Source: Thermoplasmatota archaeon (GTDB taxonomy: Archaea; Thermoplasmatota; E2; DHVEG-1). From it: 64,000 nt of DNA. Every line of letters begins with the position of its first letter. Position 1 is the stretch's first letter. The DNA lies in assembly GCA_025457885.1 (NCBI GenBank), contig JALOTN010000006.1, forward strand, positions 5,635 to 69,634, read 5' to 3'. Below are positions 6,286 through 58,302 of the stretch, in pieces. The notes beneath the pieces were generated by a model. It did not search any database, had not been told where the DNA came from, and saw only the letters and a program-made list of their open reading frames with translations. Position numbers and translations under genes: made by a program.

Positions 6286-7239
6286 ATGAAGAGACAACCT
6301 GTACGAGACATCCAGCTTCAAAAAAATTTGACTACCAACCAGTTGATAAAAGAGCTATATGATGCGGGAGGTTTTTCAGCAAAGAAACTCGCGGAGGGCG
6401 TCGATATCCTCACCCGGATGATCCAGGAAAAGGATTGTGTGACGTTCCTGTCCTTTCCCGCGTGTATCATCTCCACCGGGACTCGAGGTGTCATCAAGGA
6501 ACTCGTGAAACGAAAACTCGTCGATGTCATCATCACCACCACGGGTACCCTTGATCATGATCTCGCACGTGTCTGGAAGGACTATTACCATGGCTCCTTC
6601 ATGGCCGATGATGCCCAGCTACATCAGCAGGGGATCAACCGCCTGGGGAACATCTTCATTCCCCTGGAATGCTACGGGACCATCCTTGAGAAGAAGATCC
6701 AACCCATCCTTGCTGAGCTGTATTTGAAACAACAGAAATGGTCCACGAAGGATCTCATCTGGGAGTTTGGGAAACGTCTTGAAAAAGAAAAGAACGGTAA
6801 GGACTCAATTCTTTACTGGGCATGGAAAAACAAGATACCCATGCATGTCCCTGGCATCACCGATGGAGCGTTCGGCGCCCAGCTCTGGATGTATTACCAG
6901 GAGCATCGGAACTTCACCATAGATCTCTTCAAAGATGAGCAAGACCTCTCCGACATCGTGTTTGATGCAAAAAAAACTGGGGCTCTCGTCATCGGTGGAG
7001 GCATCTCAAAACATCATGTGATTTGGTGGAACCAGTTCTGCAACGGGCTTTCCCATGTGGTGTATCTGACAACCGCTGTCGAGTACGATGGCAGTCTGTC
7101 TGGTGCACAGACTCGTGAAGCGATCTCTTGGGGAAAAATCGCGGAGAAAGCAGATAATGTGACCATCGAAGGAGACGCAACTGTGCTGCTCCCATTGATG
7201 ATCAGCGCGTTACTTGAACGAATAAAGGGATACGACTAG
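6286..7239 (+). CDS. dys: deoxyhypusine synthase
   Basis: 317 aa matching the DHS family: GGF-AKKLAEGVDIL, KDCxxFLSF, VDVIITTxG and ISWGKI. Confidence 0.8.
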   Translation: MKRQPVRDIQLQKNLTTNQLIKELYDAGGFSAKKLAEGVDILTRMIQEKDCVTFLSFPACIISTGTRGVIKELVKRKLVDVIITTTGTLDHDLARVWKDYYHGSFMADDAQLHQQGINRLGNIFIPLECYGTILEKKIQPILAELYLKQQKWSTKDLIWEFGKRLEKEKNGKDSILYWAWKNKIPMHVPGITDGAFGAQLWMYYQEHRNFTIDLFKDEQDLSDIVFDAKKTGALVIGGGISKHHVIWWNQFCNGLSHVVYLTTAVEYDGSLSGAQTREAISWGKIAEKADNVTIEGDATVLLPLMISALLERIKGYD

Positions 7240-7578
7240 CTAGGGGGTCATCCCTGGTCGTTTCTTCTCAAAAACCCGGTTCAGGATTTCTTTTTCATCC
7301 GTATCACGGATAAGCTCTTCTGGTTCTCTCTCCTGCATCGATGGTTTTTGCAATGAGTCCTGATGCTGATGCTTTCCTTTATGGAACGCACCATAAGCTT
7401 CGTTGATGAACTCGAGTTCTTCACGGGTCGGACACCAGGAAATCATGTTCTTATTGGTAAAAAAATTCGGTGAGTTCCGGTCAAACTGGATAGCGATCAT
7501 TAACTCCCCGGTGGTAACATCTTTTTCAAGCTGGAGAGAAACATAGATATTTTCTTGTTTTTTCATACAAGTTCCCAT
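7240..7578 (-). CDS. hypothetical protein
   Basis: 112 aa. Its stop codon abuts the dys stop on the opposite strand (TAGCTA at 7237..7242). A TATA-like AAAATATAAAAC lies about 30 nt upstream of the ATG, consistent with a leaderless transcript. Confidence 0.4.
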   Translation of the reverse strand: MGTCMKKQENIYVSLQLEKDVTTGELMIAIQFDRNSPNFFTNKNMISWCPTREELEFINEAYGAFHKGKHQHQDSLQKPSMQEREPEELIRDTDEKEILNRVFEKKRPGMTP

Positions 7579-8043
7579 CCTTGTTGTACTGTCGATAACA
7601 CATAGAAGGTTTTATATTTTTTCTTTTTTGTTAGATACAAAATGTTTTTTTTCTAATAAAAAAAATATGAAAAAGAAGAATCACATCTGTTTAGTGCTTT
7701 ATTGTGACTTCTTTAATAAACTCATAATTTTTTAAGGAAGATTTTAGGTACTGCATGATGAGTTGTTTTTGATCCGCGCTTAAGGTCATATGGACACCAT
7801 CAGATGTTAAAATAATCAAGGATTTCGAAAAACTCTTTTTTTAGTATATATCCTTGGTCTGTTTTTTTTATCAAATCATGTTTCAGGCAGAATTCAATTA
7901 CCTCATCCTGTTCTTCACGTTCATACATCTCTTGTTCACCTCACTTGGAATGGAGAGGATTCCATCTCTCTATAGTTTCTGTTGCCTCTGAAGATATTTA
8001 AACATAATCTGGTAGAATACCGGAATGATAATCAGCAGCAGGG

Positions 8044-38590: not shown

Positions 38591-39850
38591 ATGCATATCG
38601 AGCTGCCCTATGGGAAAGGGACGCTACCATTGGATGTCCCTGAGAAAAACCTTCTTGAAGTAGCAGTACCAAAAGAATTTATCCAACCACAGCAACCTGA
38701 GCTGATGATTCAAGAGGCGTTAAAAAATCCTTTTGGAACAAAACGACTATCCACCCTTGTCGGAGCAGGAGACACCATTGCGATTGTCATCGATGATTAC
38801 ACTAGACCCTGTCCGACTAAGATGATCCTTCCACCTGTGCTTGCTGAGTTGAAAACCGCTGGCGTCTATGACCTTGACATCCGAATCATCATCGCAACAG
38901 GGACACACACTCCCCCTTCCTCAGATGCCGTTAAGGAACTTGTCGGCGATAAGATTTTCCGCAATTACATGATTCTTTCCAATGATGCCGTACATGGAAC
39001 CCATGTGAATGTTGGAAGAACCAAACGAGGTAACGACATCGAGATTCTCAAGGACTATGTAGAAGCTGATTTTAAAATCCTTCTTGGTGACATCGAATAC
39101 CATTATTTCGCTGGATACGGTGGGACACGAAAAAGCATCCTGCCGGGGATCTCCTCGAAAAATACGATCCAACGGAACCATAGTCTCCTTTTTGAGAAAC
39201 ACTCCTGCATGGGGATGCTTAAGGAAAACCCCATCAACCAGGAGATGAATGAGGCGATGCATCTTGCGGGATGCGATTTCGCCCTCAGTGTCGTACAAAA
39301 TTCCCAGCATCGGATCGTCGGAGCCTGGGCTGGAAAACCAGAGCTTGTAATGGATGCGGGTGTCAAACTCGTCGACACCATGTATAAAAAAGAAATCGCA
39401 GTAGCACCAGATATCATCATCACCGCGGCCAATGGCCATCCCCATGACATCAACCTGTATCAAGCGATGAAAGCCATGCATACCGCGTGTCAGATCATCA
39501 AACCTCATGGCGTTATTATTCTGATCGCTGAATGCCCTCAGCACCATGGTAGCCAACTCTATATCGATTGGATGAGGAACTATAAAACGTCACAAGAGAT
39601 ACAACAAGCGTTGCGTAAGAATTTCATTATTGGTGCTCATAAAGCGTTTTACCATCGGGTGACCATCGAGAACCATCCGGTGTTTTTTATCTCAGAGATG
39701 AACACACCAGATGTAACGGAACTATTTGGTTTTAGAAAAGAAAAAACACCGAATGATGCCTTAGCACATGCATTGAAGATTTCTGGGGAGGATTCCAAAG
39801 TTCTCGTCGTCCCACAGGGGACAACAACGTTCTTACGTATTCAACAATAA
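38591..39850 (+). CDS. larA: LarA-family nickel-pincer-nucleotide-dependent racemase/epimerase homologue
   Basis: 419 aa aligning with lactate racemase LarA: DDYTRPCP (DHTRP), IIATGTHTP (His), YHYFAGYGGTRKSILPGI (the NPN-binding Lys in GGRKS), and RNHS (His). Confidence 0.7.
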   Translation: MHIELPYGKGTLPLDVPEKNLLEVAVPKEFIQPQQPELMIQEALKNPFGTKRLSTLVGAGDTIAIVIDDYTRPCPTKMILPPVLAELKTAGVYDLDIRIIIATGTHTPPSSDAVKELVGDKIFRNYMILSNDAVHGTHVNVGRTKRGNDIEILKDYVEADFKILLGDIEYHYFAGYGGTRKSILPGISSKNTIQRNHSLLFEKHSCMGMLKENPINQEMNEAMHLAGCDFALSVVQNSQHRIVGAWAGKPELVMDAGVKLVDTMYKKEIAVAPDIIITAANGHPHDINLYQAMKAMHTACQIIKPHGVIILIAECPQHHGSQLYIDWMRNYKTSQEIQQALRKNFIIGAHKAFYHRVTIENHPVFFISEMNTPDVTELFGFRKEKTPNDALAHALKISGEDSKVLVVPQGTTTFLRIQQ

Positions 39851-46904: not shown

Positions 46905-47582
46905 GTGATGTTGAAAACTCCCGCGATTGTGTTAAACGTGAAAACCTATACGGAATCCACTGGTACAAACGCTCTTGAGCTGACGAGACTCATGGGGAAG
47001 ATTGCTTCTGAGACCAATGTGAGTATGGCAATTGCAGTGCAAGCCTGTGACCTCTCCAGATGTGCTGAACTGGGTAGTATTCCTGTCTATGCACAGCACA
47101 TTGATCCGATTAAACCCGGAAGTAGTACTGGGTGGACGTTACCAGAGGCGGTTAAACAAGCTGGAGCAGTCGGCACGCTGATTAACCATAGTGAGCATCG
47201 GTTGATTCTTGCGGACATCGACACCTGCATATTGCGTGCGAAGGACCTTGGGTTAGAGACCCTTGTCTGTACTAATAATGTGGCGACCTCCAAAGCAGTC
47301 GCTACTTTTTCACCTGGGTTGCTTGCGGTGGAGCCTCCGGAGCTTATCGGTGGGGACATCTCGGTAACTACTGCAGACCCAGGTATCGTCAGTAACACCG
47401 TCCAAGCTGTTCGAAAAATCAACAGTTCCGTAAAAATCCTCTGCGGCGCTGGGGTGAAAAACGGAAAAGATGTGTCTAAAGCAATTGAGCTTGGTGCCGA
47501 TGGTGTGCTTCTCGCCAGTGGTGTGGTCAAAGCAAAAAACAAAGAAGAGGTCCTTCGGGATTTAGCCGCAGGCATTTTTTAG
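46905..47582 (+). CDS. tpiA: triosephosphate isomerase (short archaeal type)
   Basis: 225 aa (NVKTY, INHSEHR, the catalytic Glu in AVEPPELIG, and CGAG). Confidence 0.8.
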   Translation: MMLKTPAIVLNVKTYTESTGTNALELTRLMGKIASETNVSMAIAVQACDLSRCAELGSIPVYAQHIDPIKPGSSTGWTLPEAVKQAGAVGTLINHSEHRLILADIDTCILRAKDLGLETLVCTNNVATSKAVATFSPGLLAVEPPELIGGDISVTTADPGIVSNTVQAVRKINSSVKILCGAGVKNGKDVSKAIELGADGVLLASGVVKAKNKEEVLRDLAAGIF

Positions 47583-48234: not shown

Positions 48235-48529
48235 AGATACTCAGCAGATGATATGACCCAGGTCTTTATAAAACTAAACCATTCTTCTTGAGATGTGATC
48301 CTGTCCTGGAATTATGTCAAAATGATATTCTACCAGCATACGCTTTTATAGATGAAGCACCCTCGTAGGTCTTGGAACACCGATATGGTCAGGCCGAACA
48401 CCATCTTTTTTTCCCAAGGCCTGCCCATCCCATCCCATATCTTTCTTCTCCGAGAACAACAGAGAGTGTTAAAATATATAAAGATTGCACGATATAGCCC
48501 TTGTCAAATCCCATAGAAGGTTGACCGTT

Positions 48530-50053
48530 ATGAAGGAATTAGAGAAAACATCCTCTGTGTGCCCTGCGTGTTTCCAAGAAGGGAAAATCCATAAGATTGA
48601 TGCAAAGATCATTGAAGATGACGGGAAAGTCTGGATTGCCAAAACATGTGATGAACATGGAGAGTTTAAGGATATTTACTTTGGTGATGTCGGGTTGTAT
48701 CAGAAATGGATGAAATTCGGGAAAAGTGGTGACGTTAACCCTGATGTGAAGACCTCATTATTTGACGATCCTTCTTTGTATCCGGAGCATCGGTCGCAAA
48801 GTGTGCTGACGAATCTGTTGGTGACGAACCGATGTAACCTGCGTTGCGGGTATTGTTTCATGAATGCAGGTGCCTCAGGGTACGTCTATGAACCTTCCCT
48901 TGATGAGATTAAAAAAATGCTGGAGCAGGCGCGCAAGGAACGACCGATGGGATCTAAAGCGATCCAGATCACAGGCGGGGAGCCTACGATTCGGGAGGAT
49001 CTCTTTGACATCGTCCGGCTTGCTCGAGAAGCGGGTTTCTCTCATATCCAGCTGAACTCCAATGGGATTAAACTTGCAGAGAGTGTAGAGTATTGTAAGA
49101 AACTGAAAGAAGCAAAGGTCAACACAGTGTACATGAGTTTTGATGGAGTCAGTAAGGAGACGAATCCCTGGATTGACCAGCTTATTCAGACAATTGAGAA
49201 CTTCCGTGAGGCGAATCTCCGTGCAGTGCTTGTCCCAGTGATCATCGGTGAGAAGAATCTTCATGAGACCGGGAAGATTATTCAGTTTGCATTAGATCAT
49301 ATCGACATTATCCGTGGCGTGAACTTCCAGCCGGTCTCGTTCTGCGGGCGGATTACGAAAATTAAGGATGAGAAACGGGAGAAACAACGGGTGGATTACG
49401 TCCGCATGATGGAGGTGATCGAAAAGGAGTTCCATGGTCTGATCAGCCGGGATGATTTCTATCCGGTTCCCTTCGTGTATCCTGTCTCTGAGCTCATCGA
49501 GTCATTGAAGGGAGAAAAACAAGTCGAGTTCACCGCCCATCCAGGGTGCGGTGGTGCGACATACATCTTCCTTGAGGATGGTAAACCGTTGCCGATCACC
49601 CGGTTCATCGATGTGGAAGGATTCATGAAATTCATCAATAAACAAGCTGAGGTGAAAGGACCATTGAAAAAAGTACGGGTCGCGACATCCTTCCTTCGGA
49701 ACGTGGATAAATTCGTTGATAAGGAGAAAGCGCCAAAGGATTTCGATCTGAAAAAGATCCTGATTGATGCCGCGGTCGGTGGAAGCTATGATTCCTTACG
49801 TGGTTTCCATTATAAGAGTCTGTTTGTTGGTTCAATGTGGTTCATGGATACCTTTAATTTGAATCTCCATCGGCTGGAACGATGCTGCATCCATTACACG
49901 ACCGAGGAGGGCATCATTCCCTTCTGTTCCTACAATGGTCTTGGATATGGGGATAAAATCCGTGAGAAGCATTCTCTACCTATCAAGGAATGGGAGGAGA
50001 AAACAGGTCGGCCGATGCGGGATGACCTTTGGAAACATGGCCCGTTAACCTAA
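48530..50053 (+). CDS. large radical SAM protein with N-terminal Cys-rich (zinc-ribbon-like) segment and C-terminal extra Cys residues
   Basis: About 507 aa from the ATG at 48530. It carries CNLRCGYC (CxxxCxxC), ITGGEPT, an N-terminal CPAC...CDEH, and C-terminal Cys residues in CCIHYTTEEGIIPFCSY. The size and architecture match archaeal lipid-modifying radical-SAM enzymes such as tetraether synthase, but this is not demonstrable here. Confidence 0.6.
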   Translation: MKELEKTSSVCPACFQEGKIHKIDAKIIEDDGKVWIAKTCDEHGEFKDIYFGDVGLYQKWMKFGKSGDVNPDVKTSLFDDPSLYPEHRSQSVLTNLLVTNRCNLRCGYCFMNAGASGYVYEPSLDEIKKMLEQARKERPMGSKAIQITGGEPTIREDLFDIVRLAREAGFSHIQLNSNGIKLAESVEYCKKLKEAKVNTVYMSFDGVSKETNPWIDQLIQTIENFREANLRAVLVPVIIGEKNLHETGKIIQFALDHIDIIRGVNFQPVSFCGRITKIKDEKREKQRVDYVRMMEVIEKEFHGLISRDDFYPVPFVYPVSELIESLKGEKQVEFTAHPGCGGATYIFLEDGKPLPITRFIDVEGFMKFINKQAEVKGPLKKVRVATSFLRNVDKFVDKEKAPKDFDLKKILIDAAVGGSYDSLRGFHYKSLFVGSMWFMDTFNLNLHRLERCCIHYTTEEGIIPFCSYNGLGYGDKIREKHSLPIKEWEEKTGRPMRDDLWKHGPLT

Positions 50054-50183: not shown

Positions 50184-51539
50184 ATGAAACATAGAGGAAA
50201 TAAAACGTATAGGTTCTACAAGGCTTTAGTTATCGTTGTCACATTTGGTCTCTTACTCATTCCAGGTTATGCTCTGGCACATATCTCTGATATAATGAGC
50301 GATCCTACACCACATCACCCTGCATACATACAAAGTAGAGACGACCTAAAAACCGTCGTGATACCTCCCCGTAGTTCTCCATATCATCTGAATCCTCTTT
50401 CCACAATGAATCTTGATATTGCTGAATTGATTCAGCAGGTGGATGAATCTCTTATCCTTGGATATTTGGAGAATCTAACAAGTTTTGGGCCACGGCTCTC
50501 CGGGACAATTGCGTGTAATTTGTCTGCCCAATATCTTTATGAGACATTCCAGGGGATGGGTTTAGAGGTCCGCTATCATAATTACACTGATTATACGGTC
50601 TCTGGAAGGAATGTTGAAGCGACATTACCCGGGACCGGATCTGATAATATCTTTATCATCTGTGGGCATTATGATTCAGTTGCCTCTAGTCCTGGTGCGG
50701 ATGATGACGGCTCTGGTGTCGCAGCAGTCCTTGCTGCAGCAGAAGTGATGAGGAACTATGAGTTTTTCCACACCATACGATTTGTCGCATTTTCCGGGGA
50801 GGAACAAGGATTGGTTGGAAGCTCTCATTACGCGGAGGATGCTTATGCAGCGAATGAAACCATAATCGCAGTCCTCAATGCAGATATGATTGGGTTTGCT
50901 CCTTTACCATCTGATGGCACCAAAGGGAAAATATTTGAGAATGAGGCTTCCGAGTGGATCGTGCAGTACAGCCAAGCGGTAAGCCAAAACTACTGGGATT
51001 ACATTGGTATTGAACTGACGCCTCAGGGTGAGACCTGGGGGAGTGACCATTATTCGTTCTGGCAGTATGGGTATGATGCAGTGTTTTATCATGAACATAA
51101 TTTCAATGATTATTATCACTCTGCAAATGACACAATAAATCATATGAATCTTTCCTACTCTTCTCGATTCACCAGGCTTATTTTAGCAACCCTCGCAGAG
51201 ATGGCGTTGCAACCACGCCCGGTGCTTGAAATCTCCAGCATCAGTGGAGGTCTTGGGATCACCACACAAGTTCGCAACGTCGGTGAGCTCAACGCTAGTG
51301 ATGTGAATATTTCCATTTCTTTGACTGGGGGATTGCTGGGATTGTACGATATGTCTTCTATCACGGGAGTTGATTTGCTCGCACCATTAGAATCAACACA
51401 GCATAAAGCGATTCCATTCCGGATAGGTACTATCGAAATTGAGGTAGCCGCATGGGCATCCAACGCAGATCAAGTGACAAAACATGCGACAGGGTTCCTG
51501 CTAGGTCCTCTTGTGCTGAGGCTTGTTGTCACCCCATAA
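50184..51539 (+). CDS. secreted M28-family Zn aminopeptidase
   Basis: Signal peptide present. M28 metal ligands are in HYDSV, DDGSG, SGEEQGLVGS and YHSANDT. Confidence 0.7.
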   Translation: MKHRGNKTYRFYKALVIVVTFGLLLIPGYALAHISDIMSDPTPHHPAYIQSRDDLKTVVIPPRSSPYHLNPLSTMNLDIAELIQQVDESLILGYLENLTSFGPRLSGTIACNLSAQYLYETFQGMGLEVRYHNYTDYTVSGRNVEATLPGTGSDNIFIICGHYDSVASSPGADDDGSGVAAVLAAAEVMRNYEFFHTIRFVAFSGEEQGLVGSSHYAEDAYAANETIIAVLNADMIGFAPLPSDGTKGKIFENEASEWIVQYSQAVSQNYWDYIGIELTPQGETWGSDHYSFWQYGYDAVFYHEHNFNDYYHSANDTINHMNLSYSSRFTRLILATLAEMALQPRPVLEISSISGGLGITTQVRNVGELNASDVNISISLTGGLLGLYDMSSITGVDLLAPLESTQHKAIPFRIGTIEIEVAAWASNADQVTKHATGFLLGPLVLRLVVTP

Positions 51540-51655
51540 TTTTCTTTTTTTTCTATTTCATCAGTTCCTTTTGCTCCTGATTATGAAGCGAGAACCTTAA
51601 TATCTACTTATTTTATACCTGTCTGAACCCTTTCAGAGAAAAGGGAGGCGCTTCC

Positions 51656-53179
51656 ATGGCAATTATCATTACTGGATCTGGTTTTACTATCGAAAAACTC
51701 ATTGAGGTCGCACGACATCATGAGGAGATACAACTCCATCCGGATGCTCTTGCCCGTATCAAGGCATGTCGGTTGATGCTTGAGAATAAAATCAAAGCCC
51801 ATGAGATTATGTACGGAGTCAACACGGGGATTGGGGAGTTCTCTGAAGTCGTACTGAATGATTCCCAGATGAAGGAGTTCCAGAAATATCTTATTTACAA
51901 CCATGCAGCAGGCATTGGAGATCCCGCCCCGCTGGAGTATGTCCGTGGCGCGATGGTCGCCCGGGTAAATGTCCATGCGCATGGGAACTCAGGGTGTCGC
52001 CCGGAGATCACTCAGACGTTGATTGAGATGTTAAATAAAGGTGTCACCCCGTTTGTCTGTCAGAAAGGCAGTGTTGGTGCTTGTGGAGATTTGGCTCCGA
52101 TGGCACAGATCGCATTACTTATGATGGGGGAGGGAAAAGCATACTATAAAGGAGAATTGCTGCAGGGTCGGGATGCGATGAAGAAAGCAGGGATACCCAT
52201 CCCTGGGTTGCAGGCACGGGATGGTCTGGCGATCATCAACGGATCAAATCTGTTGACTGCGATGAGTGGTTTATTTTTATATGATGCGAATAATTGGTTG
52301 AAGCAAGCAGAAATAGCAGCGGCTATGTCCCTTGAAGCCTTAAAGGCGAACATGAAACCGTACAACGTGAAGATCCATCAGGTGCGCGGGTTCCCTGGGG
52401 CGGTTCGAAGTGCTCTAGCGATTCAGAAATGCATCAAAGGCGGAGACCTAATTGAGGGTAAAATGAAATGTAAAGTCCAGGATGCCTATTCGATGCGGTC
52501 GACTCCCCAGGTGATTGGAGCGGCTCATGATGCTCTTGCGTATGCGCGGTCTCAGGTGGAAATCGAGCTGAATGGTGTGGGGGATAACCCGATTTTCTTC
52601 CCTGATGAGAACCTTCAGTTATCCGGGGCGAACTTCCAGGGATCACCCGTATCACTTCCAATGGATATGGCGGGTACGGCTATTACCATGGTATCTGTGT
52701 TATCAGAGCGTCGGATGAATCGTCTGAACAACCCTGCGTTGAATGTCGGGTTACCCGCGTTTCTAACTAAAGGAGCGGGGATGTTCTCTGGTTTGATGTT
52801 GAGTCAGTACACCGCGGATGCGTTGATTGTCGAACAGCGAATCTTATCAGCTCCTGCGTCGATCCAGTCGATTCCTGCTGCCGCGGACCAGGAGGATTTT
52901 GTCTCAATGGGGATGACAACAGCGATTAAGAATTTCCAGATTCTTGATAATGCCTATGGGATTCTTGGGATCGAGTTTATGGCTGCCGCGCAAGCCCTGG
53001 ATTTCCGTGATTATCAATGCGGGAAAGGGGTGACAAAGGCAAAAGAAATCATCCGAAAACATGTTAAGTTCCTCGATGAGGATCGACCGTTATACCCGGA
53101 TCATACTACAATGAAGGAGCTGGTGAAATCCGGTGAGATTCTCCATGAAGTCGAGACCGCTGTAGGAAGTCTGGAGTAG
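51656..53179 (+). CDS. hutH: histidine ammonia-lyase (MIO-enzyme family) with Ala-Cys-Gly in the MIO-forming position
   Basis: 507 aa aligning over its length with HAL. The MIO loop reads GSVGACGDLAPMAQ (codons GCT TGT GGA at 52079..52087, residues 142-144) in place of the canonical GSVGASGDLAPL. Confidence 0.8.
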   Translation: MAIIITGSGFTIEKLIEVARHHEEIQLHPDALARIKACRLMLENKIKAHEIMYGVNTGIGEFSEVVLNDSQMKEFQKYLIYNHAAGIGDPAPLEYVRGAMVARVNVHAHGNSGCRPEITQTLIEMLNKGVTPFVCQKGSVGACGDLAPMAQIALLMMGEGKAYYKGELLQGRDAMKKAGIPIPGLQARDGLAIINGSNLLTAMSGLFLYDANNWLKQAEIAAAMSLEALKANMKPYNVKIHQVRGFPGAVRSALAIQKCIKGGDLIEGKMKCKVQDAYSMRSTPQVIGAAHDALAYARSQVEIELNGVGDNPIFFPDENLQLSGANFQGSPVSLPMDMAGTAITMVSVLSERRMNRLNNPALNVGLPAFLTKGAGMFSGLMLSQYTADALIVEQRILSAPASIQSIPAAADQEDFVSMGMTTAIKNFQILDNAYGILGIEFMAAAQALDFRDYQCGKGVTKAKEIIRKHVKFLDEDRPLYPDHTTMKELVKSGEILHEVETAVGSLE

Positions 53180-53206: not shown

Positions 53207-54877
53207 TTATTTTTTGATCATCGGGATTTGAATATGTGATTGTTTCACTTGTTGAATCGCTTCTTTGTATCCAGCGTCTGCATGTCGAGCGACCCCCATA
53301 CCTGGGTCGGTGGTGAAGACCCGTCTGATGCGTTCATCGGTTTCTGTGGTGCCGTCACAAACAACAACCATCCCTGCATGTGTGGATAATCCAATGCCGA
53401 CACCCCCGCCATTGTGGATTTGTACGCTATCTGCTCCTGCGGCGCAGTTGAGAAGTGCGTTGAGTAACGGCCAGTCTGCGATTGCGTCACTGCCGTCTCT
53501 CATTGATTCGGTTTCCCGGTATGGTGAGGCAACACTGCCGCTATCGAGATGATCCCTGGTGATGGCGATGGGGCCGATTTTTTTCTCCCGGACCATTTTA
53601 TTGATGACCAGGGCGAACTCTGCTCGCTCCCCGTATCCAAGCCAGCAGACACGCGCGGGAAGTCCTTCCCAGGGGAGGTGCTTCTCGGCAAGGGTGATCC
53701 AGTTTGTTAACACCATGTCTTTTGGAAAGAGTCTTCTGGCTGCTTCATCGGTTTTGAGAATATCCTTTGGGTCACCGGTGAGTGCGAGCCAGCGGAAGGG
53801 TCCTCGGCCGACACAGAACATCGGTCTGATGTATGCGGGGACAAACCCGGGGTAGTCAAACGCGTTTTTCAAGCCTGCTTTCATGGCTTGGCCTCGGAGG
53901 TTGTTCCCGTAATCGAACACTATTGAACCTTTCTTTTGAAAATCAAGGAGTGCAGTACAATGTTGTTTGATGCTTTGCATGGACTGTTTGATGTATAAGG
54001 TGGGGTTCTTTTTTCGTAGTTCATCTGCTTGTCGGAGTGATTCACCGTAGAATTTTGCAGGGACATATCCGTTGAGCTCATCATGTGCTGAGGTCTGATC
54101 GGTGACGATATCCGGGTTGAATCCTTCTTTCACTAACCAGGGCATGATGGTTGCGCAATTTCCCAATAAGCCAATAGAGAGTGGTTTTTTTTCTTTTTTC
54201 GCTTGAGCTGCGAGTGTTACTGCTTCATTGATATCTTTTATTTTTTTGTCACAGAATCCTGCGTTGATTCGTCGGTCGATACGTTTTTCATCACATTCAA
54301 CCGCGAGGCACACGCCTTGGTTCATGGTGACGGCGAGCGGTTGCGCACCACCCATACCACCAAGTCCACCGGTGAGGACGATCTTTCCTTTCAGGGTGCT
54401 TTTGAAATGTTTTTTTGCACAAGCAGCAAACGTCTCATAAGTCCCTTGGATGATTCCTTGGGTGCCGATGTAACACCAGGACCCTGCAGTCATCTGCCCA
54501 TACATGGTTAAGCCTTGGTGTTCGAGGTTTCGAAAGTTCTCCCAGGTGCTCCAGTGTGGGACGAGGTTTGAGTTCGCCATGAGGACCCGTGGTGCGGTCG
54601 TCCAGGTTTTGAAGACCGCGACTGGTTTTCCTGATTGAATGATGAGTGTTTCATCATCGTTGAGTTTTTTTAGAGTGGTGACGATTGCGTCGTAGCATTT
54701 CCAGTTGCGTGCTGCTTTACCGGTGCCACCGTAGATGATGAGGTCCTCTGGTTTTTCTGCGTTCTCCAGATTGTTCTCCAGCATCCGGAGGATTGCTTCT
54801 TGTTTCCAGTTTTTACAGCGCAGCTTGTTTCCCTTTTGAACCTTCACGTGTCGTGTCATGGTTTCGAATTTGCACAA
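53207..54877 (-). CDS. hutU: urocanate hydratase
   Basis: 556 aa with an NAD-binding [11 protein letters not shown] and N-terminal KGNKLxxKxWxxEAxLRML. It is convergent with hutH. Confidence 0.8.
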
Positions 54878-55319: not shown

Positions 55320-56744
55320 CTAGGGGTACCCACCAATACGTAAACTAGGGTCTCCAAACAGTGCCCATGATTCCATGACTTTCGCATCAATCCATGAGTC
55401 ACCAAGCCCTGGGGAATCCCATTTCACGGGGTACGTCTGTGCGTACCAGCTGACTGCAGCAGACCAGGTGTCTCCTAAAATAGTGGCTTGGTTCTGTCCA
55501 TAGGAATGGAAAAACGCGCACTCCAGTTCATTGATGCCCCCTTTAAAGGAGGTCTTATCCTCTTTGGTGAACCCCAAGGCGGTGCACCCAATGCTGCAGA
55601 TCGAACCACCGGTTGGTTCCCGGAGGATACGTTCACTCCAACACTCCGGGACGTACTCCTGTTTCCATCGTGTGTCTTTGTTAAACAGTCGTCTCAGACA
55701 GACATCGAACTGACTATTGTGACAGCCGCTGACCACACAGACCGGAAGTCGGTCCTTATTGCGGAACTTCCACATATCATTACTGTTCGGACCCTGGACA
55801 AAGCCTGTCCCATTGGCTTTGTTGTTCCCCCACTGCTTAGGGCTTCCATGGCCGACAAAGTACACAAACCCGTACCCGTTATGAAACTCCCTGATGACGT
55901 CTTTCTTGTCAGTAAACGTCTCATCCGATGTGTACAGCCGAGTAGGGGTAAACCCCGTCATGTTCTCAATTGCACGATCCCCGTAATATTCTCCCTCATA
56001 CCCGGTCCAGTTCGGATTACCTGACACAGGGTACGTGTCTCCAGCGACTACCAAAATCCGTGAAAACCAGGATTGGCCAAACGCGGTTGTCTCATAATTA
56101 ATGATCTTCTGAACGATGATTCTGACCTCCCGGGGATTGCGACATGGCAGACGACCCACGGCGACATCCGGGGCTAGGTCAATATCGACATCCTGCGCAT
56201 TCTCCCCCATATACCATTCCCCATACACCCCGTCACCATCACTGTCCCAGCTGGAAAACCCCCCGTTCCGATCATAGATATCCGCGAAATACAGGTCACT
56301 GAGATACCCAACATCCCAATCATCCACCATGTTGACGTACCGCACTGGGCAATACCAGGATGGAAGGAACTGGCTGCTTCTCCCCCCCACCAAGAGAACA
56401 TATTCAACGCCCCAGATCTCAACAGCCGCCTTGATGAAATATTTCAGCTTCTCCGCCTCATCACGACCCTCCCAGTACATCTGATGATACACCTCGGAGA
56501 GCGTGACCAGTTTTGTGCTCATACCATGGGCGTTCTTATGCGCAACCAGTGGTTGTAGCTCGTTTTTAAAAACCGTCGGCGTCAGAATCAACAGCGAGTA
56601 CACCACGTTTGACTCCTGCGAAGTCTCTGTAAGCTCAATTCCTCTTGGTTCCCCCTGTGCTTCAACAAAGGGACTCAGACCAGAACAGAGAAAAACCACG
56701 ATAATACCATAGACTTGTAATCGATGTCTTCCTTTCATTTTCAT
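55320..56744 (-). CDS. secreted peptidase C25 (gingipain)-like cysteine peptidase homologue
   Basis: 474 aa with a signal peptide. C25-type N-terminal subdomain (YVLLVGG, DLYFADIYD, VGRLPC...YET), a His in FVYFVGHGSP, and a Cys in LPVCVVSGCHNSQFD. It is a tandem paralogue of the next gene. Confidence 0.6.
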   Translation of the reverse strand: MKMKGRHRLQVYGIIVVFLCSGLSPFVEAQGEPRGIELTETSQESNVVYSLLILTPTVFKNELQPLVAHKNAHGMSTKLVTLSEVYHQMYWEGRDEAEKLKYFIKAAVEIWGVEYVLLVGGRSSQFLPSWYCPVRYVNMVDDWDVGYLSDLYFADIYDRNGGFSSWDSDGDGVYGEWYMGENAQDVDIDLAPDVAVGRLPCRNPREVRIIVQKIINYETTAFGQSWFSRILVVAGDTYPVSGNPNWTGYEGEYYGDRAIENMTGFTPTRLYTSDETFTDKKDVIREFHNGYGFVYFVGHGSPKQWGNNKANGTGFVQGPNSNDMWKFRNKDRLPVCVVSGCHNSQFDVCLRRLFNKDTRWKQEYVPECWSERILREPTGGSICSIGCTALGFTKEDKTSFKGGINELECAFFHSYGQNQATILGDTWSAAVSWYAQTYPVKWDSPGLGDSWIDAKVMESWALFGDPSLRIGGYP

Positions 56745-56790: not shown

Positions 56791-58302
56791 CTAAATGACG
56801 GATCCCCCTGCTTGCGGATACCCACCAATCTTTAAACTAGGGTCCCCAAACAACGCCCATTGCTGCACGGTTTTTGCATCAATCGCACTATCCCAAGCAG
56901 CAGGTGTGTCCCAATCAATCGGATACCGATTCAGATAATTTGTAATCGCATTGCCCCAGGCGTTCCCAAGAATGGTTGTCCCATTCACCCCATACTCGTA
57001 AAAGAACGTTGGCTCAAGAAAATCACCAGCACCACTGAAGGACTGCTTATCCTCCTTTGACATCCCCAGTCCCGTACACCCAATCGTCGCAATCGACCCA
57101 CCATTGTTCATCCGCGTCAGCTTCCACCCCCAACACTCACGAATCCAGGTGTAATGCCAAAACAACCCTGAGGGTGACGTACGACTCGAGAAATACCGCA
57201 ACCCTTGTTCTTTGATTCCCCACAAGATATTCTTCGGTGTGACATCGAACTCGTTGTTATGACACCCTCCGACGATACACACCGGCAACATCCGTTTGTT
57301 CCGAAGAAGATCCATCGACACCGTGTTTAACCCATTAATCCAGGTCTGCGGTTTGTCCGTCGGATGAGTGCTCCAGGAAAACGCGTTCGCATGCCCCTCA
57401 AACATCAAAAAACCACACCCGCCATTGATCGCGCGAATCACATCCCGCGGCCCGGTAAAAGACTCATCAGACGTCCAGAGTTTCACTGGTTCAAACCCAG
57501 ACATATTATCAATAGCATCCTGCGTGTTTTCCTCCCCTTCATTCCCTGTCCAATTTGGGTTCAATGACTCAGGGTAGGTGTCACCAGCGACAACCACAAA
57601 CCGATGGAACCACTCCTGACCAAACGCAGTGGTCTCATAGGTAATGATCTTCCGTACCATCACCCGGACCTCAGCGTCATTCACACAAGCAAGACGCCCG
57701 ACATACACATCCGGGTACAAATCAATATCCCGGTCCCGCGCAGTCGCACCATACCATTCACCATACACCCCGTTGTTACCTGAATCCCAGCTAGAAAAAT
57801 TATGGTTCCTATCATAGAGATCCGCATAATACAACTCAGAAATAAAACACGGCTCATCCCAGCCGCTGTTATTATCCGCATTATACACATACCGAATGGG
57901 GATGGTTTCGAAATCCCCCACCAACAGGACATACGTGATCCCCCAGGTCTCCTTTGCCGTCTTAATGAAATACTTAATTTTCTCCTGCGGATCCCGCCCA
58001 TACCAGAACATCTGATGGTACACCTCGTTTAGAGTCACCAGGTTGGTCTTCACCCCCACCCGATTTTTATGGGTCACCAACGGCTGCAACTCATTGACAA
58101 ATTTTCTTGGAGCGATGATCAACAAATCATACACCACGGGAGTTGAAATTCCAGGGAAAGACCCCTTCACATACCCCCCAACATTCGTAAAGAGAGATGC
58201 ATTCTGTGCCATAAAAGCAGGACACCATAACAATCCAAAAAATACGACAGCGAGAACAAAAAGCTGTTTGATGAACACCGATTGAGATACCTTCATACGC
58301 AA
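56791..58302 (-). CDS. secreted peptidase C25 (gingipain)-like cysteine peptidase homologue, tandem paralogue
   Basis: 503 aa with a signal peptide, about 55-60% identical by eye to 55320..56744 (YVLLVGD, ELYYADLYD, VGRLAC...YETTAFGQEWF). The His lies in FLMFEGHANA and the Cys in LPVCIVGGCHNNEFD. Confidence 0.6.
   Translation of the reverse strand: MRMKVSQSVFIKQLFVLAVVFFGLLWCPAFMAQNASLFTNVGGYVKGSFPGISTPVVYDLLIIAPRKFVNELQPLVTHKNRVGVKTNLVTLNEVYHQMFWYGRDPQEKIKYFIKTAKETWGITYVLLVGDFETIPIRYVYNADNNSGWDEPCFISELYYADLYDRNHNFSSWDSGNNGVYGEWYGATARDRDIDLYPDVYVGRLACVNDAEVRVMVRKIITYETTAFGQEWFHRFVVVAGDTYPESLNPNWTGNEGEENTQDAIDNMSGFEPVKLWTSDESFTGPRDVIRAINGGCGFLMFEGHANAFSWSTHPTDKPQTWINGLNTVSMDLLRNKRMLPVCIVGGCHNNEFDVTPKNILWGIKEQGLRYFSSRTSPSGLFWHYTWIRECWGWKLTRMNNGGSIATIGCTGLGMSKEDKQSFSGAGDFLEPTFFYEYGVNGTTILGNAWGNAITNYLNRYPIDWDTPAAWDSAIDAKTVQQWALFGDPSLKIGGYPQAGGSVI

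Follow-up and report, generated by a model that had tools for sequence, protein, structure and literature searches.

A 64,000-nucleotide stretch of the genome of a Thermoplasmatota archaeon (contig JALOTN010000006.1; hereafter the window) carries a gene of the histidine ammonia-lyase (HAL) family in which the triad that gives rise to the methylidene-imidazolone (MIO) cofactor reads Ala-Cys-Gly (ACG) in place of Ala-Ser-Gly (ASG). The natural ACG triad, a repeatedly encountered variation on a known cofactor-forming motif, lies in a conserved HAL paralog and is neither an artefact nor a singleton. The protein is likely an active MIO enzyme in which Cys serves as the cofactor precursor. An earlier sequence-only reading of this DNA had offered three explanations for the Cys, namely a natural variant of MIO biogenesis, an inactive paralog, or a single-base sequencing error; the alternation of Ser and Cys among orthologs and the conservation of the active site favor the first. 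The gene and its relevant elements are:

51656..53179, plus strand: HAL-family (PF00221) gene of 507 amino acids, from the open reading frame (ORF) and its translation; NCBI MCU0850066.1
52079..52087, plus strand: GCT TGT GGA, read in frame as Ala142-Cys143-Gly144, the MIO-precursor triad with Cys replacing Ser
52067..52099, plus strand: MIO loop GSVGACGDLAP, residues 138-148, invariant at all but position 143 in the sampled close homologs
51899..51904, plus strand: AAC CAT, Asn82-His83, at the 'substrate switch' position that is Ser-His in canonical HAL
51643..51648, plus strand: GGGAGG, probable ribosome-binding site 7 bases 5' of the ATG, as read from the sequence

Both sequence and fold place the product in the PF00221 superfamily, and PF00221 was assigned to all close homologs. 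As the sequence-only reading had it, the protein aligned with HAL throughout: in a phmmer search of all Protein Data Bank (PDB) chains it matched HAL structures end to end, the top match being T. acidophilum HAL (7tqr, E value 1.5e-93), with P. putida HAL (1gkm/1b8f) at about 1e-86 (8e-87). An AlphaFold2 (AF2) model built from 117 diverse relatives (predicted local distance difference test score of 97) superimposed on P. putida HAL entries, e.g. 1b8f and 1gkj, with a TM-score of 0.94. Cys143 fell in the same column as Ser143 of P. putida HAL in both the phmmer alignments and a MAFFT alignment of 347 sequences, which confirms the equivalence proposed from the sequence. The rest of the loop was rightly described as canonical, with G138, S139, G141, A142, G144, D145, L146 and P148 all matching the family consensus of the 117 relatives. 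The departure from the X-Ser-Gly tripeptide that characterizes MIO enzymes of PF00221 is thus confined to the central residue, the ring-forming Ala and Gly being kept.

The Cys is genuine and has been kept over a long period. The protein has an exact database match in MCU0850066.1 ('aromatic amino acid ammonia-lyase [Candidatus Thermoplasmatota archaeon]'), is also present in JGI/IMG and Logan, and belongs to a 90%-identity cluster of 29 members. Among the most similar cluster representatives, which were 84-95% identical and derived from JGI, ENA, NCBI, and Logan assemblies, 117 of 120 carried ACG and three carried ASG. A species-level scan was run with one genome per species and the 80 best loci (L001-L080) were taken; here, orthologs were 78-91% identical, 53 encoding ACG and 27 encoding ASG. 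One of these orthologs (L035) was checked for an in-frame stop or selenocysteine codon, and its gene is intact. We refer to the family as the Asn-His clade, in which Cys is the state of 169 of 199 members (85%), or 65% at species level. Both Cys codons were used by the 51 ACG orthologs that were re-extracted (TGC in 28, TGT in 23), with the choice tracking gene GC content (0.51 vs 0.45), so Cys has been long maintained with synonymous drift at its codon. A sequencing or assembly error with TCT or AGT as the true codon has nothing in its favor beyond the single base that separates TGT from either, and is effectively ruled out by the identical protein in several sources, the size of its cluster, and the prevalence of ACG in near relatives and genomes through TGT and TGC alike. 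Databases contain hundreds of clade proteins under the names 'histidine ammonia-lyase' or 'aromatic amino acid ammonia-lyase', with many already given the former label by JGI. The sequence-only reading was aware of no described natural ACG enzyme, and our literature search for a natural Ala-Cys-Gly MIO triad found no description either in the papers that could be searched. Its proviso that the triad would cease to be novel if common among annotated HALs is borne out in part, as ACG is the majority state of the whole clade and recurs in other HAL lineages.

Ser and Cys alternate at residue 143 within the clade. Fitch parsimony on a neighbor-joining (NJ) tree of 205 sequences, calculated with this site masked, gave at least 23 changes, 15 from Cys to Ser and eight from Ser to Cys, with Cys reconstructed for the clade ancestor, although the tree is an approximate one of closely spaced sequences and the count may be inflated. 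On this tree, the 30 Ser-bearing orthologs (plus one nested representative) formed 22 separate small groups. Independently of any tree, Ser was found in Thermoplasmatota (L052), Clostridia (L024 and L049), and many Bacteroidales, and the nearest ACG ortholog of each ASG ortholog was at a median identity of 86% (maximum 93%), compared with a family median of 83%. No column covaried convincingly with the Ser/Cys state, the maximum mutual information being 0.20 bit and the top columns resembling lineage effects. Nor did the state track the presence of a canonical hutH in tandem with the ortholog, 11 such pairs being ACG and 11 ASG.

Ser codons of the orthologs fell in nearly equal numbers into the AGY (13) and TCN (14) sets. 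Only Cys and Thr are single-step neighbors of both Ser codon sets (PMC6872785). Thr was absent from the central triad position of all orthologs and cluster representatives, save for an ambiguously aligned '-TG' in P0235. The pattern is consistent with TGY bridging the TCN and AGY Ser codons as a functional hub; TGY being one mutation from each, lineages would drift among the three codon sets. Ser and Cys are probably functionally interchangeable precursors at residue 143, with Cys the commonest state in the clade and probably the ancestral one.

Consistent with a working enzyme, Y53, H83, N195, Q275, Y278, R281, F327, and E413, together with N311, were invariant in 198 orthologs (in P. putida numbering, Y53, H83, N195, Q277, Y280, R283, F329, and E414, with Asn313 as the ninth). 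The list of P. putida HAL residues mutationally shown to matter reportedly goes back to Rother et al. in 2001. With respect to their roles, a preprint names Gln, Arg, and Asn as carboxylate binders, His and Glu as binders of the N-tau and N-pi atoms of the imidazole, and Tyr as the beta-proton acceptor (10.1101/2025.08.13.670108). That these residues are invariant argues against a decaying or inactive paralog and makes an amino acid with an imidazole group the probable substrate. Combined with the alternation of Ser and Cys among near-identical orthologs, the invariance of the eight HAL residues makes the inactive paralog entertained by the sequence-only reading unlikely.

In the mechanism that we propose, the amide nitrogen of Gly144 would attack the carbonyl of Ala142, with cyclization and loss of water, and the side chain of Cys143 would be beta-eliminated as H2S, where Ser would give water. 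The resulting methylidene-imidazolone would be that of ordinary HAL. The protein would then act as a histidine-type ammonia-lyase supplying urocanate to the adjacent urocanase. We infer both the formation of MIO with loss of H2S and the use of L-histidine, the latter being the somewhat favored physiological substrate in the Thermoplasmatota archaeon. Some other, related substrate or role has a smaller, though real, claim, given that the switch reads Asn-His and that a true hutH so often accompanies the gene. Chemical precedent for the conversion of Cys to the dehydroalanine or MIO methylidene comes from an engineered enzyme with the same substitution at the same residue: in a 1994 Biochemistry paper, Langer, Lieber and Retey are said to have found that P. 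putida HAL S143C matures to fully active enzyme. Unlike that laboratory mutant of a Ser enzyme, the Cys seen here is natural, predominant, and long maintained in Archaea and many bacterial phyla.

The genomic context bears on the proposed substrate. The convergent neighbor of the HAL gene is:

53207..54877, minus strand: hutU, urocanate hydratase (TIGR01228, 879 bits, cut-off 375)

The stop codons of the two genes are separated by a T-rich spacer of 27 bases, and the hutU product did not reach the cut-off of either the thiourocanate or the S-methyl-thiourocanate hydratase model. hutU lay within 8 kilobases (kb) of the ortholog at seven loci (family F10, seven members with the window counted), and the pairing of HAL paralog and hutU recurred in the Thermoplasmatota loci L001, L002, and L052. 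No canonical hutH was found within 8 kb of the pair in the Thermoplasmatota loci, which suggests that the paralog provides the HAL step there. In the bacterial locus L023, where the canonical hutH occupies 6304-7893, the gene order was hutH - paralog (ACG) - x - hutU - x - hutI - x - ftcD, and in L036 it was hutH - hutU - paralog (ACG) - ftcD-family gene, the last assigned solely by clustering with the annotated FtcD of L023.

Several points weigh against an ACG enzyme that makes MIO and deaminates histidine. MIO formation, H2S release, and HAL activity of the natural ACG proteins are all matters that we infer, and the number of Ser/Cys changes depends on the approximate tree described above. 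hutI, hutG, and ftcD were not found among the annotated ORFs of the window (28 further ORFs were annotated, which brought the coverage to most, not all, ORFs of the 64 kb). Seventeen invariant substitutions also distinguish the protein from canonical HutH, among them H330Q, H151Q, and the substrate-switch change S82N, and a true hutH is encoded alongside in 22 of the 80 genomes, where one of the two would be redundant if both enzymes shared one job.

The hutH label given by the sequence-only reading does not hold up, and the orthologs form a clade of their own. The product of 51656..53179 scored 508 bits with TIGR01225, the hutH equivalog model, which is under the cut-off of 539.15, and it passed the broader subfamily model NCBIfam NF006871 (539 bits, cut-off 524). 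In the 22 genomes, the second HAL-family gene is upstream on the same strand, is 33-41% identical to the query, and is always ASG; the three neighboring genes that were scanned scored 604-695 bits with TIGR01225 and are bona fide hutH. As canonical ASG hutH genes of such low identity stand beside the query orthologs, the latter constitute a distinct paralogous clade, which also differs by its Asn-His switch and its position downstream of true hutH. Direct adjacency was the usual arrangement, with hutU intervening in L036 and two genes in L064. The loci are:

Canonical hutH about 1.5-4 kb upstream: L015, L017, L022, L023, L024, L028, L030, L036, L040, L041, L043, L047, L049, L054, L056, L060, L064, L066, L069, L073, L078, L079

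Canonical HutH (P. putida HAL, 1B8F/1GKM; T. acidophilum HAL, 7TQR) and the clade protein share fold, length, numbering up to residue 195, the eight active-site residues, the MIO loop bar residue 143, and the link to hutU, with hutI and ftcD in some genomes. In contrast, the clade protein has Cys143, the Asn-His pair, H330Q, H151Q, L149M, C284S, P135C, and about 10 further invariant changes; replacement of His416 by Phe is likewise clade-wide, though missed by the filter that yielded the 17 differences. Asn82 was invariant in 198 orthologs, whereas Ser occupied this position in 22 of 22 tandem canonical hutH products and 119 of 125 cluster representatives. The Ser/His 'substrate switch' motif has been described previously (PMC11432326). 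Clade members were 74-100% identical (median 83%) and came from Thermoplasmatota and at least eight bacterial phyla, the hosts including Bacteroidales, Zixibacteria, Ignavibacteria, Clostridia, Cloacimonetes, Lentisphaeria, Delongbacteria, Aminicenantes, and others. Conservation within the clade was far above the usual level of HutH. The distribution suggests that the gene has been transferred horizontally between domains, among sediment or anaerobic-digester organisms.

Given these differences, MIO may derive from Cys as proposed while the Asn-His clade represents an enzyme in its own right, other than a simple L-histidine ammonia-lyase, a possibility that we put forward tentatively. Candidates are a lyase of modified histidine (N-methyl- or thio-histidine), a histidine aminomutase, and a hetero-oligomer partner of HutH. 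The subthreshold TIGR01225 score, the 17 clade-invariant differences with S82N among them, and the location immediately behind a genuine hutH in 22 of the 80 genomes would all be expected of such an enzyme, and there is precedent in Pseudomonas, where hut loci carry two homologs, hutH1 and hutH2, one the working histidase and the other dispensable on histidine (PMC8034625). The pairs of hutH and paralog resemble this arrangement and are a possible analog. However, His83 and Glu413, which bind the imidazole, show no variation and neither does any carboxylate binder, the neighboring hydratase is a canonical urocanase and not of the thiourocanate type, and the Thermoplasmatota loci have no canonical hutH within 8 kb of the pair, which suggests that the HAL step there falls to the paralog. 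This alternative bears solely on the substrate and leaves room for Cys as the MIO precursor.

We also considered that Cys is selected and not merely tolerated, e.g. with H2S as the better leaving group allowing faster or fuller MIO maturation, something affordable in anoxic habitats, in which oxidation would not claim the thiol beforehand. This appears unlikely. The frequency of Cys at both species and clade level exceeds a back-of-envelope neutral expectation of 25% (two of the eight Ser plus Cys codons), Cys is the inferred ancestral state, and its carriers are metagenome-assembled genomes from Thermoplasmatota, Bacteroidales, Zixibacteria, Cloacimonetes, and Ignavibacteria, lineages that are mostly anaerobic. 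Against this, changes from Cys to Ser outnumber those from Ser to Cys, indicating no pull towards Cys; ASG orthologs occur in the same kinds of organisms, with no contrast in habitat; and phylogenetic inertia of an ancestral Cys would account for the excess. More doubtful again is the bolder proposal that the Asn-His clade is an unrecognized MIO family with a function unlike that of HutH (e.g. a lyase of modified histidine, an aminomutase, or a partner that HutH cannot do without), in which a preference for Cys with H2S release is an adaptation to anoxia and not neutral.

That Cys143 is retained and forms no MIO, making the protein a dead or regulatory paralog or else an MIO-independent lyase that, like ergothionase or histidine-betaine lyase, acts on substrates whose leaving group is better, is very improbable. 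MIO-less lyases of the HAL family do exist and are routinely mis-annotated as HAL (10.1101/2025.08.13.670108). Such enzymes (ergothionase, 6S7J, with Lys384 in T. denticola numbering as its thiolate binder; histidine-betaine lyase, Swoo_3913; SO_3057/SO_3299) have the PF00221 fold and conserved imidazole and carboxylate binders, the AF2 model fits ergothionase 6s7j (TM-score 0.95) as well as it does HAL, and the paralog often co-occurs with a canonical hutH. Yet in the characterized MIO-less enzymes the triad is gone and the leaving group has to be trimethylammonium, whereas the clade protein keeps Ala142, Gly144, Asp145, and the whole loop invariant. One third of orthologs carry ASG, and their proteins are equivalent in other respects, no clear change elsewhere accompanying the Ser. 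By sequence, the protein is nearer to HAL entries of the PDB (295-317 bits) than to ergothionase (219 bits), and no trimethylamine-related genes were present among the annotated neighbors. The reported maturation of the S143C mutant to active enzyme also speaks against a Cys that stays unmodified. An ergothionase-type identity was rejected on account of the retained MIO triad.

Beyond the Asn-His clade, we scrutinized 1.84 billion 50%-identity cluster representatives in a full HMMER scan, taking the best 150 matches, in 147 of which the triad was readable. ASG was found in 123 of these, SSG in 11, ACG in seven, and TSG in one, with the triad deleted in four and ambiguous in one. ACG hence accounts for ~5% of the nearest 50%-identity clusters, and it is present in at least two HAL lineages outside the Asn-His clade, three of the seven representatives (P0204, P0161, and P0183) being non-members of that clade. 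The natural ACG triad arose several times. P0204 keeps every canonical HAL residue and was found on seven contigs, three of its places coming from three different samples; no hut operon surrounded it, and its context is uninformative on function. P0161 and P0183 belong to a clade that combines ACG with Q277R and Y280L, and P0161 comes second in a tandem pair of HAL genes; the surrounding cluster, of 71% GC, includes urocanase, amidohydrolase (hutI-like), and ABC-transporter genes according to Pfam. Loci of this HAL-like clade are:

L084, 6457-9536
L085, 811-3890
L086, 542-2077

The four representatives with a deleted triad (P0193, P0194, P0196, and P0252) read 'GSVGY---L' and resemble the MIO-less trimethylammonia-lyases of the ergothionase and histidine-betaine lyase type.

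Natural triad variation described to date affects residue 1, as do the 11 SSG and one TSG representatives above, and the central Ser is taken to be constant; in the present protein, it is the central, methylidene-forming residue that is altered. To our knowledge, PROSITE PS00488 and the UniProt 'didehydroalanine (Ser)' annotation both hold the central MIO Ser to be invariant. Reviews treat it likewise, whereas Cys occurs naturally at this position in hundreds of archaeal and bacterial proteins. If these proteins make MIO as proposed, they would represent a natural second route of MIO biogenesis that loses H2S in place of water, and filters based on an x-S-G motif would wrongly drop or mislabel real MIO enzymes. 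They would also offer a clean natural case of an essential Ser moving between TCN and AGY codons via a functional Cys intermediate. Irrespective of mechanism, a highly conserved HAL paralog is brought to notice, often beside a true hutH. The surprise to specialists should be moderate, because the mutant reported in 1994 anticipated the chemistry.

Other neighbors of the gene differed between lineages. In Bacteroidales-type loci, hisS (identified by TIGR00442, 387 bits) usually precedes the paralog or the HAL pair (25 loci, e.g. L004 6575-7960 and L039 129-1505), and a 147-amino-acid membrane protein that matched no family often lies downstream, together with two large ORFs that are SusC/SusD-like by eye. 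In the window, the ORF that directly precedes the HAL gene (50184-51539, also plus strand) gave a weak aminopeptidase match (LapA, 92 bits, far under the cut-off), and ORFs of similar size occupy the same place in L001 and L002. An aminopeptidase-like neighbor may link peptide breakdown to histidine catabolism. Two further minus-strand ORFs (55320-56744 and 56791-58302) are tandem paralogs of 474 and 503 amino acids with weak matches to the PorU type IX secretion sortase (C25-peptidase-like; 70 and 47 bits), which is unexpected for an archaeon; a protein like this pair was also found in the Thermoplasmatales locus L002.

The archaeal identity of the host was confirmed by Tes tetraether lipid synthase (572 bits), an archaeal-type triose-phosphate isomerase, and MfnA tyrosine decarboxylase:

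48485-50053, 46905-47582, and 18-1289, all plus strand: archaeal marker genes

The window also encodes a homolog of the LarA-family nickel-dependent 2-hydroxyacid racemases at 38591-39850.

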